Source of the DNA: a virus
Taxonomy: Duplodnaviria; Heunggongvirae; Uroviricota; Caudoviricetes
Virus record (IMG/VR): IMGVR_UViG_646311924_000007
Span: 33,898 to 97,897 of that record
Reading direction: 5' to 3' (one strand)
DNA: 64,000 nt
Positions 4,586 through 61,229 of this stretch are shown here, in pieces (the first letter of the stretch is position 1; every line of letters starts with the position of its first letter). A model generated the notes under the pieces. It did no database searches. It saw only the letters and a list, made by a program, of their open reading frames with translations, and was not told the DNA's origin. Made by a program: the position numbers and the translations under genes.

Positions 4586-5176
<591 letters not shown>

Positions 5177-6512: not shown

Positions 6513-6699
6513 GTATTTTTAAGTCGCGAATGCTATCTTTTCGCATCATATTGACCTTTTAATCGTTCAGGCTTATAGTTCCGCCGTCGTAGCAAATTCT
6601 GCGACCGGGTTTAGCAGCCTGAATGATTGTGCGGACAGCCGCAGATATCCGATATTGCGGTATTTTTGTGTCCGTAAAACCGCGTTACGCCCAAATTAT

Positions 6700-6776
6700 G
6701 GTGGGGCGTGATGGGGAGGCTTCGGCCTGCTGGTTTCACAATCGCCAGTCTGCTAACCCCGTCACGTCCTGCCACC
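6700..6776 (+). ncRNA. c4: candidate c4-like antisense regulatory RNA
   Basis: GC-rich segment with self-complementary ends (GGTGGGG...CCTGCCACC) between the operator and icd, in the position of P1 c4; has a 7-nt stretch (CTGCTAA) complementary to the icd leader; boundaries approximate. Confidence 0.3.
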
Positions 6777-6826
6777 TGTTTAGCAGCGGGTAGCAGGTTG
6801 TTAAACCTGATTGTGAGGCCGTAACT

Positions 6827-10218: not shown

Positions 10219-10625
10219 TACAATCGTTGCGGGTGCTTGAGGCTATCTGCTTCAGGCATTACCCGAAAAGCAGATAGAAGAAAGCCCCAGATAACATTAC
10301 GCGTCCTGCAAGACGCTTAACATTAATCTGAGGCCACATCTATGCTTAGCATACGTAGATTAGCCTCTTACCGACCAAAAGGTCAAGGAGAAGCAGGCTA
10401 TGAAGCAGCAAAAAGCGATGTTAATCGCTCTGATCGTCATCTGTTTAACCGTCATTGTGACGGCACTGGTAACGAGGAAAGACCTCTGCGAGGTACGAAT
10501 CCGAACCGGCCAGACGGAGGTCACTGTCTTCACAGCCTACGAATCTGAAAGGTAAGAGACCTGGCGGGGAGAGATCCCCGCCACTCTTCGTGTGTCAGGT
10601 ATCCTCAATGCACCCTTTCCTCTCC

Positions 10626-27300: not shown

Positions 27301-27422
27301 ACATCAGAGAGCTTTATCATGACAGTGGCTTCAGAGTGGAACCTCTTTTTGCCAGACGTTCTGTGTCTTGTAAGGGGGACACTCGAGGTGTAGCTCATGA
27401 CGTTTTGGGTATATTGCTCTAA
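24381..27422 (+). CDS. dmt: bifunctional DNA methyltransferase Dmt (N-terminal C5-cytosine MTase interrupted by an intein; C-terminal Dam-like N6-adenine MTase)
   Basis: C5-MTase motifs I ([13 protein letters not shown]), IV ([12 protein letters not shown] split by insert), VI (ENV), VIII (QRRRRVF), X (GNSMAIPV); C-terminal FVGGGAV and DPPY motifs of Dam-type MTases; GTG start at 24381. Confidence 0.85.
24612..25634 (+). mobile_element. intein with LAGLIDADG homing-endonuclease domain (341 aa; Dmt residues 78-418)
   Basis: Begins with Cys (CFTAGHMVL, block A), block B TTNDHPF, two LAGLIDADG-like motifs ([21 protein letters not shown]), ends VVHN followed by the extein Cys of the PCQ motif. 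Confidence 0.8.
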
Positions 27423-27429
27423 TAAATTT
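27413..27429 (+). promoter_or_regulatory. C1 operator 17-mer (perfect ATTGCTCTAATAAATTT) overlapping the dmt stop codon
   Basis: Exact consensus; a degenerate inverted copy follows (TTTATTAGTGTAAT). Confidence 0.7.
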
Positions 27430-27603
27430 ATTAGTGTAATATCACCTCAATGAATCGTGATTTATAGAGCGATTTAGCTGTTAGCCGCGACAGGCGCGGC
27501 GGTAAGCATGGCTGGGCCTAGTCCTCCCAGACAAACCACCGAGTTGCCAGGTTGACCATGCGCCTAAGTGGCAACGCCGAAGTGCGTTACGAGCGTCCAG
27601 TTT

Positions 27604-27629
27604 GCCCATCTTCGGGTGGGCGTTTTTTT
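27604..27629 (+). terminator. rho-independent terminator-like hairpin
   Basis: GCCCATCTTCGGGTGGGC followed by GTTTTTTT, about 190 nt downstream of the operator. Confidence 0.5.
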
Positions 27630-28094
27630 CAGGGTTTTCGTCATGGTTAGCGACTTTGCGGCGGTTTAGAAACTGACCATTAAAGTAAATGCAAACGATG
27701 ATCTGATGATGGTAGCGGCCTAAGAAGCCAGATGCCATGGGGTATGAGTCGTCCCCCGTCAAAAAATCGACCGCAGAGTGTCCCCGTCTGTGTATTAGGG
27801 AACGGGGAGGCACAACAGGTAAGGGCGCTGGTGTGATTAACCAGATGAACGAGAAGGGGCCATCTGTTGGTCAGCGTCCTTTCCTGTTGCGTTTTCTTTT
27901 CAGCGTAACAGCGGTGCTTAACAGCACTTTGGGTACAGTTCCACGAATTTACGGGTATATCCCGTCATGCTGAAGGCGCTAATCACGCTGGAAGCCAGGG
28001 TTATGCATCCCCTGTTACCGAATTGCAGCCAGGGCGCGGTGCGCCGAAAAGCATACGGAGGTGGAAGCCCTCGCCGGAGACGTACCCGGCAAGT

Positions 28095-28169
28095 GATGGT
28101 GTAGCTCAGCGGTAGAGCAGTTGGCTGTTAACCAACTGGTCGGTAGTTCGAATCCACCCACCATCGCCA
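28095..28169 (+). tRNA. tRNA-Asn (anticodon GUU)
   Basis: Hand-folded cloverleaf: 7-bp acceptor GATGGTG/CACCATC, D-arm GCTCAGCGGTAGAGC, anticodon loop CUGUUAA, T-loop TTCGAAT, 3' CCA encoded; coordinates anchored to overlapping track ORFs. Confidence 0.8.
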
Positions 28170-28174
28170 CTTTA

Positions 28175-28261
28175 GGGGAGTTAGTCCGTAGGGGTAGCGG
28201 GGTAGACTGTAAATCTACTGTCATTGCGACTCGGGTGGTTCGACTCCATCACTCCCCACCA
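28175..28261 (+). tRNA. tRNA-like gene, class II, anticodon GUA (Tyr-like)
   Basis: Acceptor GGGGAGT/ACTCCCC, anticodon stem-loop GTAGA-CUGUAAA-TCTAC, 15-nt variable arm, T-arm GGTGG-TTCGACT-CCATC, CCA encoded; D-arm geometry irregular by 1 nt. Confidence 0.45.
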
Positions 28262-28265
28262 CATT

Positions 28266-28341
28266 GCCGATTTAGCTCAGTTGGTAGAGCAGTCGCTTTG
28301 TAAGCGAATGGTCAGCGGTTCGATCCCGTTAATCGGCACCA
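28266..28341 (+). tRNA. tRNA-Thr (anticodon UGU)
   Basis: Acceptor GCCGATT/AATCGGC, D-arm GCTCAGTTGGTAGAGC, anticodon loop UUUGUAA, T-loop TTCGATC, CCA encoded. Confidence 0.8.
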
Positions 28342-28345
28342 ACAT

Positions 28346-29076
28346 AACAGGTAAGAGCATTCTCCCTTATGGGGCCTGGCTTAAATGCATCGAGTGCTCT
28401 TACCGTTGTGATGAAGTGCAGATCTTAGAAGCAACCAGAAGATAAGCATCTGGCTTCACAACATAAACCGCAGGAACGACCAATAAACGGTAGTCCGTAT
28501 GGAGAACACCCCGTTGAGGAAGAGGCCTGGCCGGAACCGTAACCGGCGACTGGTAATGTGTGTAAATGGAGCGAAATATGTGGGCGTTTAACGGGATACG
28601 GGTTGTAACAGCGATTATTAACGGCGAACTTAAGTATTCACGTTTCGAGACAAATGAACGTGATGGGAAATGTATTGGTGTGCGGTTAGTAAGAGAATAC
28701 GCATAACAACTACAACGTTGAGAACACTGGCGTAACGGGGTCATATCCCAATCTACGAATAAATGTTGCGTTGCCGCGTGACAACCAGTGTTCTCAACAT
28801 TGTGGTGAATGCACAGGCTGATGTGCCGCAACTACAGTAGTGCGCGCTTTGCGGGGCTTGCTACAACCCTGTGTCGGAGTTCAGCACCGACCATCACAGT
28901 TTGATTCTCTGGCATGAGCATAACGCTGAAATAAGTCCAGTCTGGTGCGGTCTGATCACCCGCCGTTAGCTCCACGAAACGGAGCACGTAACAGGTAAGA
29001 GCATTCTCCTGTAACGGGTTCATATCCCAATCTACAGGTCCACCAAGAATGCTCTTTCCGTTGCGGTGAATGCGGC
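28346..29076 (+). repeat. ORF-free tract with three repeated hairpin units (candidate structured RNAs)
   Basis: Repeated blocks ACAGGTAAGAGCATTCTCC (x2), GTAACGGGKTCATATCCCAATCTAC (x2) and TTGYGRTGAAKGC (x3), each embedded in 10-18 bp inverted repeats; only implausible ORFs across it; coordinates +/-1. Confidence 0.45.
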
Positions 29077-29214
29077 TAAGCGCACGCGGGGAAATGGTTA
29101 TATCTGTCCATTATTTCTCCTTGTTTCCACGTCCACGGTGGATAACCAGCCAAAGGACACCGGGAGGAACCCGGCACCGCAGCTTTTTTATTCGTTAAAT
29201 AATGGAGTGAGAGG

Positions 29215-59430: not shown

Positions 59431-59612
59431 TGTTTTTTAACTACCGATGTTACATTGAGCCTGACCTCTTGCGCCTTGAGGCATTTTCGGTTTATGCTTA
59501 TCAGGCACCTCATTAAAACGGGTGCCGGGATTGGCCTCCCGCTTAAGTCTAAGGCGATACAGACGCCGCTCGCGTCTTTTTTTGTATCGGCGTACACGCA
59601 CACCTCTACAAT

Positions 59613-59691
59613 GGTGGGCTGTATGGGGCTACCTTCGGGTAGGCTGGTTACCTTGGACGCCAGTAAGGCCAACTCCGTACAGTCCACCGCC
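59613..59691 (+). ncRNA. candidate second c4-like antisense RNA
   Basis: Begins GGTGGGC and ends CCACCGCC like the module-1 candidate; contains CCTTGGACG, 8/9 complementary to the icd-2 RBS region; boundaries approximate. Confidence 0.3.
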
Positions 59692-59748
59692 AGCAAGATT
59701 GGTCTCTTCTGCGGTGGTTACATACCAACGTCTAAGGAGGCTGCCAAT

Positions 59749-60015: not shown

Positions 60016-60906
60016 TCAGGCTGCCAGATCATCGTTTCCGATGGAAGCATAATAAGCTTTTTCTGCTTCTGCCGGAGGAGTATGGCCCAGCCTTCCCAGC
60101 AATCGTCGATTGTTATACCAGTCCACCCACGTTAGTGTGGCCAGTTCCACTTCTGCACGGTTTTTCCAGCTCTTACGGTGTATTACCTCCGCTTTGTAAA
60201 GACCATTGATGCTCTCAGCCATCGCGTTGTCATACGAGTCGCCTGTACTCCCTGTTGATGCCAGTAATCCGGCTTCTTTTAGTCGCTCCGTATAGGCCAG
60301 TGACACATACTGAGAGCCTTTATCGCTGTGATGGATGGTGCCAGACGGACGACGGGCCCACAACGCCTGCTCCAGCGCATCCAGCACGAATGTCGTTTCC
60401 ATAGACGATGAGACCCGCCACCCCACGATGTATCCGGCAAACACATCAATGATAAACGCCACATAGACGAAGCCCTGCCATGTGCTGACGTAAGTAAAAT
60501 CAGCCACCCACAGCTGGTCAGGTCGTTCTGCCACGAACTGACGGTTTACGCGGTCGCCTGCGGCAACGGCTTTCCGGCTGATGGTCGTACGGACCTTTTT
60601 ACCCCGGAGAACACCGGCAAGTCCCATAACCGCCATGAGACGTGCCACTGTACATCTGGCCACCCTGATTCCTTCCCGTAACAACTGACGCCAGACTTTA
60701 CGCACACCGTACACCTGATGATTTTCATCGTATACGCGCTGTATCTCTCTCTTCAGCCAGTCGTCGTGCTGCGCACGGGCACTGCGTTTATCCGGATGAT
60801 GTCGCTGTTGCTGACAATGGTAATACGTTGACGGGGCAATATGCAGTTCGCTGCATACCGGTCCGACCCCGTACTGCTCACGCAGCTTATCCAGCAGTGG
60901 CATCAT
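60016..60906 (-). CDS. IS3-family transposase OrfB
   Basis: Protein identical to 41379..42269. Confidence 0.85.
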
Positions 60907-61229
60907 TTTTTCCAGAGGCGGTCGAACTCCGCCTTCGCAAAATAAGCGGAAGCCTGGCGAAGGATATCGTTACTGCGGCGCAGTTCACGATTTTCACGTT
61001 CCAGCTCTTTCAGACGCTGACGTTCAGCGCTGGTGAGCCCACCATCACCGCCCCCGGTATCCCGCTCATGCTGGCGAACCCAGACACGCAGAGTCTCCGG
61101 CGTACAGCCAATCTTTGGGGCAATGGAACAAATTGCCGCCCACTGTGAGTCATATTCATCCTGACTTTCCAGAACCATACGAATCGCCCGCTGACGGACT
61201 TCGGGGGAAAAACGAGTATTTTTAGTCAT
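60903..61229 (-). CDS. IS3-family transposase OrfA
   Basis: Protein identical to 41056..41382. Confidence 0.85.

Follow-up and report, generated by a model that had tools for sequence, protein, structure and literature searches.

The C1-controlled leader and terminator of the P1 ban operon, and the tmRNA-derived RNA that lies behind them

The stretch of DNA analysed here (the window, 64,000 nucleotides; positions 33,898 to 97,897 of the IMG/VR record IMGVR_UViG_646311924_000007) is that of a P1-type phage or plasmid. The subject here is the leader of the ban operon, the DNA between the end of the dmt gene and a group of tRNA genes, in which a C1 operator, a promoter, a structured RNA module and an intrinsic terminator follow one another and are succeeded by an unannotated RNA derived from transfer-messenger RNA (tmRNA). 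Sequence comparison of positions 27350-28100 gives 100% identity with Escherichia phage vB_EcoM-Ro157c2YLVW and 99.2% with P1, and 641 plasmid records carry this stretch too. The feature to which a preliminary description drew attention, a short C1-controlled transcription unit, is real and is largely annotated already as Op72ab/Pban and as a 'dicF-like' region; the interest lies in what its terminator gates. The leader contains the following features.

27397-27428, + strand: predicted promoter P2ban of the P1 annotation
27413-27429, + strand: C1 operator Op72a (Obana), a perfect 17-mer match to ATTGCTCTAATAAATTT; Obana is the monovalent C1 operator in NC_005856
27414-27442, + strand: promoter P1ban, -35 TTGCTC at 27414-27419 and -10 TAATAT at 27437-27442, transferred from the P1 annotation at 99% identity
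27424-27440, - strand: C1 operator Op72b, ATTACACTAATAAATTT, with 2 mismatches; Obanb in the P1 annotation
27484-27575, + strand: conserved structured leader module of about 90 nucleotides, a cloverleaf-like fold with a pseudoknot and homology to lambdoid prophages
27576-27602, + strand: single-stranded 'payload' between module and terminator, at the position of the DicF seed, which differs between P1 and the P7-like copy and from all lambdoid payloads
27603-27629, + strand: intrinsic terminator, an 8-bp stem UGCCCAUC-UUCG-GGUGGGCG (27603-27622) with a UUCG tetraloop, followed by T7 (U7 in the RNA) at 27623-27629

The dmt open reading frame (ORF) ends at 27422, and its TAA (27420-27422) lies inside Op72a, so that the perfect operator overlapping the dmt stop was correctly described. 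Op72b is inverted relative to Op72a and overlaps it, which makes the operator bivalent. The reference record NC_005856 (Obana, locus coordinate + 23849) describes Obanab, earlier called Op72ab, as a divalent C1-controlled operator that 'controls expression of ban', and has P1ban and P2ban at the same place. The window carries the same sequence as P1 Obanab/Pban at 99-100% identity, with an identical operator and the same overlap of bivalent operator, promoter and dmt end; it differs from P1 in having T7 rather than T6 after the hairpin, in a single G/T difference at 27593 and in an extra tRNA-Tyr further downstream. Sites matching the C1 operator with no more than 2 mismatches number 10 in the window against 0.03 expected from shuffled sequence, and these statistics together with the P1 annotation bear out that this is C1's own operator, set at a promoter directed into the interval. 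Repression of Op72ab-Pban by C1 (and Bof) in vivo is presumably as the annotation of the P1 record and the older literature have it. That C1 governs a promoter directed into the interval is thus established annotation and nothing new, and the freely searchable literature yielded no relevant published work on Op72/ban.

The start site of Pban would lie at about 27449. Promoter prediction had been suggested as a check, and here the outcome is divided: a generic sigma-70 scan that demands at least 4/6 matches in each hexamer calls no promoter at this place, although the annotated P1ban hexamers, TTGCTC-17-TAATAT, are present and the promoter is known from the P1 annotation. Since the scan misses Pban, it is evidently insensitive to a weak promoter embedded in an operator. 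On the + strand between the hairpin (27630 on) and ban, simple scans found no promoter-like sites, these scans being themselves insensitive to Pban.

The strong hairpin and T-run reported some 190 nucleotides downstream of the operator proved to be a canonical intrinsic terminator, in which a G+C-rich hairpin (27603-27622) is followed immediately by a U tract; counted from the start of the operator, the hairpin is 190 nucleotides away. Its fold has a dG of -12.8 kcal/mol (z -4.2 against shuffles) and persists when the entire leader is folded, both in the minimum free energy (MFE) structure and in the centroid, being 1 of only three elements in the latter. Terminator-like sites as a class are unenriched in the surrounding 3-kb stretch (3 found against 2.8 expected). 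The hairpin is kept in the P1, P7-like and D6 lineages (in D6 at L246:2503-2528), and in the P7-like copy U-to-C and C-to-U changes preserve the pairs. In D6 the terminator hairpin is preceded by about 750 nucleotides of non-coding DNA after pmgS, which contain no dicF-type module, and another long hairpin, AAGAAAGAAGCCGACU...AGUCGGCUUCUUUCUU (L246:2405-2485), precedes the UUCG hairpin.

Nothing in the interval appears to be coding. The only + strand frames between operator and hairpin are TTG/GTG frames of 32-33 amino acids that run across the hairpin, as the statement that no credible ORF occurs here had implied. A GTG ORF of 110 amino acids on the - strand (27481-27813) matches nothing in Pfam or PHROG; it runs through three RNA modules, each conserved separately, whose relatives differ by indels of 1-3 nucleotides. 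This ORF and a 78-amino-acid ORF on the + strand, which likewise has no match in Pfam or PHROG, were both rejected as a coding explanation.

What the interval does contain, and what the preliminary description overlooked, is the structured leader module. P1 records annotate a 'dicF-like region' that corresponds to 27537-27638 of the window and overlaps the module, which consists of the following pairings.

27485-89 with 27495-99: helix CCGCG/CGCGG
27500-03 with 27538-41: helix CGGU/ACCG
27506-11 with 27556-61: pseudoknot GCAUGG/CCAUGC
27512-16 with 27526-30: helix CUGGG/CCCAG, closing the loop CCUAGUCCU
27543-49 with 27569-75: helix GUUGCCA/UGGCAAC

Chromosomal sequence 77-79% identical to positions 27485-27579 occurs in 4406 of the 5426 complete E. 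coli genomes, with up to 8 copies per genome, none of them annotated. In a K-12-type genome the homologue lies between ydfC and dicB and ends 25 nucleotides before DicF (76.7 bits, L130:1622-1673), and the same arrangement, with the module directly 5' of DicF, is found in Qin and other lambdoid prophages. The alignment of P1 with Qin is strong across the module and fades where DicF starts, similarity being lost past 27581. Among 70 distinct prophage copies of the module, the sequence that comes next is DicF or one of at least four other hairpin-plus-U-run sequences, such a payload always following the homologous module in lambdoid prophages; P1 and the P7-like copy each have a distinct payload of their own. 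A search of 27400-28100 for DicF gave no Rfam match even at E values up to 10 (RF00039, threshold 48 bits; the Qin positive control scored 76.7), and with the decay of the alignment past the module this led to the rejection of the P1 unit as a member of the DicF family. The unit does occupy a DicF-type position, directly 3' of a lambdoid-type leader module and ending in a hairpin and U run. Judged by these alignments, the 'dicF-like' similarity of P1 is to the RNA module of about 90 nucleotides and not to DicF, a distinction that is new here.

The consensus fold of the module was derived with RNAalifold from 28 diverse copies and is cloverleaf-like, with a closing stem GUUGUGG/CCACAAC and three arms. 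When a GYAUGG/CCAURC pseudoknot is added, 96.5% of alignment cells are paired, against 31-58% in slid controls, and pairs with changes on both sides number 8, where shuffles give 2.1 and 0/500 of them are as high. These pair counts lend the predicted fold moderate support and are not proof of it. In spite of the cloverleaf-like outline the module was rejected as a tRNA: no tRNA-model or ARAGORN match falls at 27484-27575, and the P1 copy is without the closing stem. The loop of the central hairpin (27517-27525; columns 50-62 of alignment A4) always contains CCUCC or UCCUU, in P1 as CCUAGUCCU, which is anti-Shine-Dalgarno-like and could seed pairing with ribosome-binding sites.

An unannotated RNA starts three bases beyond the terminator and extends from 27633 to about 27810. 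A terminator upstream of the tRNAs had been described, and its place is as described, but read-through first reaches this RNA and not the tRNAs. It is made up as follows, all on the + strand.

27633-27664, + strand: 5' arm GGUUUUCGUCAUGGUUAGCGACUUUGCGGCGG, antisense to E. coli tmRNA nucleotides 72-105
27665-27690, + strand: linker UUUAGAAACUGACCAUUAAAGUAAAU, nearly invariant, with U(-5)A(-4) ahead of the resume codon and with columns that do not vary across unrelated phages
27691-27723, + strand: tmRNA-type tag frame, GCA AAC GAT GAT CTG ATG ATG GTA GCG GCC TAA = ANDDLMMVAA*
27709-12 with 27735-38 and 27717-19 with 27727-29, + strand: H5-like helix enclosing the stop codon and the last tag codons
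27739-42 with 27753-56, + strand: pseudoknot GGGG/CCCC, whose loop GUCG (27748-51) pairs with CGAC (27768-71)
27782-87 with 27803-08, + strand: second, pseudoknotted hairpin CCCCGU/ACGGGG

Enterobacterial tmRNA is marked by a U(-5)A(-4) context, by the length of its tag and by a stop codon inside helix 5. In the window, a permissive Rfam search returned a weak match to permuted tmRNA at 27618-27723 (24 bits, the best family), which arises because of the tag frame ANDDLMMVAA*, itself preceded by AUAAAU. By blastn, about 293-300 phage records in GenBank carry unannotated DNA that is 70-88% identical to positions 27633-27826. Besides P1, the carriers include Ackermannviridae, Schitoviridae, Drexlerviridae, Skatevirus, Roufvirus and D6, and they span at least six unrelated lineages, T1-like, N4-like and Vi1-like phages among them. 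The tags in nine retrieved phages read ANDNEFKVAA, ANDDVVLMAA, ANDDLMLMAA, ANDNTFLAVA or ANEEMYLAVA, and a pattern scan of IMG/VR added at least 120 further loci (L010-L129) to those from GenBank (L002-L009). All 130 tag copies (130/130) consist of exactly 10 codons and a stop, the last two residues are A/V-A in 129/130, and synonymous changes occur at the codons for Leu, Val and Ala, the variation at third positions keeping A/V-A at the end. The IMG/VR retrieval pattern fixed codons 1-3, so that only the remaining codons count as independent evidence. At 85% identity the copies form 51 clusters. In an alignment of 47 sequences (A3) the fold of 27709-27808 pairs 90.2% of cells against 79.4% in shuffles and 27-47% in slid controls, and its covariation score is 0.315 against 0.156 in shuffles (0/500 as high), with 12 pairs changed on both sides. 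A tRNA gene lies within 2 kb on the same strand in 26/51 clusters and in none of the others, so that an early impression that the element always sits in tRNA clusters was wrong.

The 5' arm is collinear with the reverse complement of tmRNA nucleotides 72-105, that is, with the 3' strand of pseudoknot 1 (PK1), GCCGCAA, with AGUCGC round the resume codon and with AAC GAC GAA AAC; the codons targeted are the resume codon and codons 2-5. Aligned locally to the reverse complement of E. coli ssrA, the arm scores 33-35, against 15 +/- 2.4 for shuffles (0/2000, 0/1000), and in other lineages it scores 20-36. The arm scores higher against the host tmRNA than against its own phage RNA in 51/51 clusters (median 27 against 15), and the three blocks of the arm that are conserved among phages are the three complementary blocks, with indels occurring between them. 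The energies given by RNAduplex were set aside as evidence of pairing in favour of this alignment-based test, as they are weak (z -1.3 to -4.7) and shuffled queries give similar values. Sense homology of the arm to the 5' end of tmRNA was rejected as well, the alignment being at chance level. The target segment of tmRNA is almost invariant in Enterobacterales, Aeromonas and Vibrio, which fits the use of a single arm by phages of many hosts; for the same reason, host-specific compensatory changes cannot serve as evidence.

The element is tmRNA-derived, as far as comparison of sequence and fold can tell, but it is not a tmRNA. It shares with tmRNA (SsrA; RF00023, clan CL00001) the resume codon GCA with its U(-5)A(-4), pseudoknots downstream, a stop codon in an H5-like helix and a tag, AND....AA, with as many codons (10) as the enterobacterial ANDENYALAA; it differs in having no tRNA-like domain and in a 5' arm that is antisense to the host tmRNA. 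ARAGORN at default settings found no tRNA-like domain, whether in the window or at 8 further phage loci, and across the 64 kb every tmRNA family stays below its gathering score (Rfam scores of 22-33 bits against a gathering score of 47). With thresholds relaxed to 80%, ARAGORN recognises a 'resume consensus' and makes three mutually incompatible assignments of the tRNA domain; the candidates from relaxed ARAGORN, from scans for a T-loop motif and from scans for partners of CGAAAA were inconsistent or specific to a lineage and were rejected. In KFS-SE2 a promoter, TTGACA-17-TAGATT, ends about 15 nucleotides before the element, and in SG01 a coding sequence begins about 130 nucleotides after the tag, so that these bounded copies leave a minimal unit of about 190 nucleotides with no room for an acceptor or a T arm.

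Two further relatives deserve comparison. In the two-piece (permuted) tmRNAs of alpha- and beta-proteobacteria and of cyanobacteria, the coding and acceptor-end pieces are separate and are joined by base pairing. The element resembles these in consisting of a separate coding piece, and its best Rfam match is to the permuted family; unlike them, its acceptor piece would hypothetically be the complete tmRNA of the host, with the pairing made to the message region. Full-length tmRNAs are reportedly encoded by mycobacteriophages and by the BE-cluster phages of Streptomyces, often beside tRNA genes, and standard tools call those as complete tmRNAs. The element is likewise related to tmRNA, carried by phages and often found beside tRNA genes, but such tools do not call it, and the phage records in GenBank that contain it leave it unannotated.

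How the leader might work is best approached through the dicF locus (ydfABC-dicF-dicB) of Qin and other lambdoid prophages. There, DicF is generated by early Rho-independent termination in the dicBF operon together with trimming by RNase E, and read-through transcripts continue to dicB and are processed by RNase III (PMC9438474). P1 has the same module, followed within about 25 nucleotides by an RNA that ends in a hairpin and U run, and in both cases the distal genes of the operon need read-through; P1 differs in lacking DicF and the closing stem, in control by C1 rather than by DicA/DicC, and in its cargo, which is RNA genes and a helicase where the dicF locus has dicB. Its layout of module, short single-stranded stretch, terminator and distal genes is that of the dicF locus, and 27449-27629 is read on this ground as a C1-gated, dicF-locus-type leader cassette whose terminator would set the ratio of a short RNA to the long operon transcript. 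The comparison makes this reading probable, with considerable room for doubt. The P1 ban operon runs in the order leader, RNA genes, tci genes, tRNA, ban; the name 'tRNA-plp-ban operon' used in the preliminary description does not hold, as in P1 the opposite strand carries plp and upl.

It is proposed that, once C1 is inactivated, Pban would fire from about 27449 and that some transcripts would end at 27629, giving an RNA of about 180 nucleotides that is probably trimmed, in the fashion of DicF, to a short RNA with a 3' hairpin. The remaining transcripts would read through into the tmRNA-derived RNA (27633 to about 27810), then into three tRNAs and, after 3 kb, into the gene of the Ban helicase, and the terminator would have to be partly read through for ban to be reached. 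The start site, termination in vivo, the processing and the function of the RNA are all steps that we infer. The suggestion of a short C1-repressed small RNA is thus reasonable by homology to the dicF locus, in a region that had already been annotated as Op72ab/Pban, and terminator-gated read-through, as also suggested earlier, is plausible.

Several observations weigh against this reading of the leader. The closing stem GUUGUGG/CCACAAC of the lambdoid module is absent from the P1 and P7 copies, and the module sequences are closely related, so that covariation is modest. Taken as a whole, the leader does not significantly exceed shuffles in stability (z -1.57), and a search of the window for a target of the putative leader small RNA found none beyond a chance 10-mer. 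Pban goes uncalled by the generic promoter scan, and the silence of that scan elsewhere is thus weak evidence. Finally, the D6 hairpin stays before the tmRNA-like element despite a wholly different upstream sequence, and may therefore belong to what lies downstream.

This last point is the core of one rival explanation, according to which the hairpin is part of the tmRNA-derived RNA, either as an insulating terminator or as a 5'-flanking stem that protects or processes it. The D6 homology block begins at 27601, and the D6 hairpin lies 3-5 nucleotides before the arm in an unrelated upstream context; other phages have a hairpin about 20 nucleotides before the arm, there without a U run. The lambdoid module, on the other side, always comes with a hairpin-plus-U-run payload, which argues for a unit of module and terminator; the two readings are compatible, and attribution of the hairpin to the downstream RNA is considered unlikely without being negligible. 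The conservation in D6 bears also on the proposal that the hairpin mainly terminates the upstream uhr-hrdC-dmt operon (Pdmt/Op68) and that its position in the Pban leader is incidental. It is indeed the first terminator-like site past the dmt stop, 180 nucleotides downstream, but it has been kept in D6 with no dmt in front of it, and it lies downstream of Pban, so that Pban transcripts would meet it regardless; a main role in ending the dmt operon is accordingly doubtful.

The module itself might be a cis-acting RNA for processive antitermination, similar to put of phage HK022, such that polymerase starting at Pban would ignore this and later terminators. In P1 as in the dicB operon the module stands just upstream of an intrinsic terminator within the operon that must be passed for the downstream genes, its fold is compact and conserved, and a functional analogy is possible, both being nascent structured RNAs upstream of terminators in a phage early operon. 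However, put is an RNA of about 70 nucleotides with two stem-loops (PMC9378689), whereas the module has a four-helix fold with a pseudoknot; HK022 is present in the phage collection and is yet absent among the listed blastn matches to the module, and this explanation appears quite improbable. A classical attenuator, in which alternative leader structures or a leader peptide choose between termination and read-through, is very unlikely indeed. A structured leader of about 180 nucleotides before a terminator would suit it, but the only frames are those of 32-33 amino acids that cross the hairpin and no leader ORF is conserved, the MFE and centroid folds contain no pairing that competes with the terminator stem, and the conserved helices of the module exclude the terminator arms; the attenuator-type leader offered in the preliminary description was rejected for want of a leader ORF and of a competing structure.

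What read-through from the ban leader would reach first is the tmRNA-derived RNA with its anti-tmRNA arm and not the tRNAs. A tag frame under apparent coding constraint, the lack of a tRNA-like domain and an arm that can pair with tmRNA together suggest an RNA that acts through the host tmRNA, and it is on balance probable, going by these features, that the element engages host tmRNA functionally in some way. A more specific and decidedly tentative possibility is that the two RNAs assemble in trans into a two-piece tmRNA, by which the degradation tag of rescued proteins would be swapped. The arm would then dock on nucleotides 72-105 of the host tmRNA, masking the host resume codon and first tag codons and invading PK1, while the phage linker, resume codon, 10-codon tag and stop would emerge from the duplex at its PK1 end; the host would provide the alanyl-tRNA-like domain and SmpB, and the phage would provide the message. 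The polarity suits such a swap, in that the phage linker and resume codon would exit the duplex at the PK1 end, where the host linker begins. In a weaker version, the element could be a plain antisense inhibitor of host trans-translation. The freely searchable literature yielded no description of such an RNA, of these tags or of a direct attack on tmRNA at the level of RNA.

Beyond the element, the operon and the rest of the window contain these further features.

27811-27889, + strand: long hairpin CACAACAGGUAAGGGCGCUGG...GUCAGCGUCCUUUCCUGUUG, one example of the inverted-repeat module found repeatedly in non-coding arrays of phages
28095-28341, + strand: tRNA-Asn, tRNA-Tyr and tRNA-Thr, the next genes on read-through
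29062-29181, + strand: sub-threshold match to STnc100, with others at L130:1671-1880 and at L003:3701-3784 and 4791-4871
30637-32007, + strand: ban, beyond the tRNAs
6573-6779 and 59505-59694, + strand: two copies of C4 antisense RNA at Rfam gathering level, one with an a1b1 target and the other beside isrK
10231-10405, + strand: sok antitoxin RNA at Rfam gathering level
41337-41453, + strand, and 60832-60948, - strand: two identical ALIL frameshift pseudoknots of IS3-family insertion sequences, at Rfam gathering level

Inverted repeats of the form CACAACAGGUAAGAGC...GCUCUUUCCGUUGUG with a boxA-like UGCUCUUU are found at 27811-27889 of the window, in L018, L031, L047, L067, L077, L114 and L125, and at L130:1690-1830. 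In T1-like phages they stand in tandem and flank variable cargos of about 60-150 nucleotides, tRNAs and the tmRNA-like element; related pieces lie in the spacer between dicF and dicB of Qin, and P1 has one copy. This distribution suggests modular arrays of non-coding RNA that share signals for processing or antitermination. A hairpin GCCGGAGACGUACCCGGC (28071-28088, + strand) just before tRNA-Asn resembles GCCGGAGUUCAGCACCGGC, the T-arm-like hairpin that closes many cargo modules in the arrays of T1-like phages. The tRNA-Tyr (GTA), of 87 nucleotides with a long variable arm, is located at 28175-28261 (+ strand) between tRNA-Asn and tRNA-Thr, and the P1 reference has only Asn and Thr. The Rfam family STnc100 (gathering score 47) gives sub-threshold matches of 38 bits in P1, of 34 bits in Qin, where it lies downstream of dicF, and of 24-29 bits in Bp4, an N4-like phage, and is another non-coding piece common to these three.

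For P1, the comparison corrects a 20-year-old annotation, in that the 'dicF-like region' contains the leader module and no DicF, and the module has apparently been reused by temperate phages in front of interchangeable small RNAs that end in a terminator. The tmRNA-derived RNA behind the terminator, if it does what its sequence suggests, would represent a new class of phage counter-measure or of RNA for taking over the host. Should its arm engage the host tmRNA, viruses as different as P1 and the T1-like, N4-like and Vi1-like phages would share a way to silence or re-programme trans-translation.

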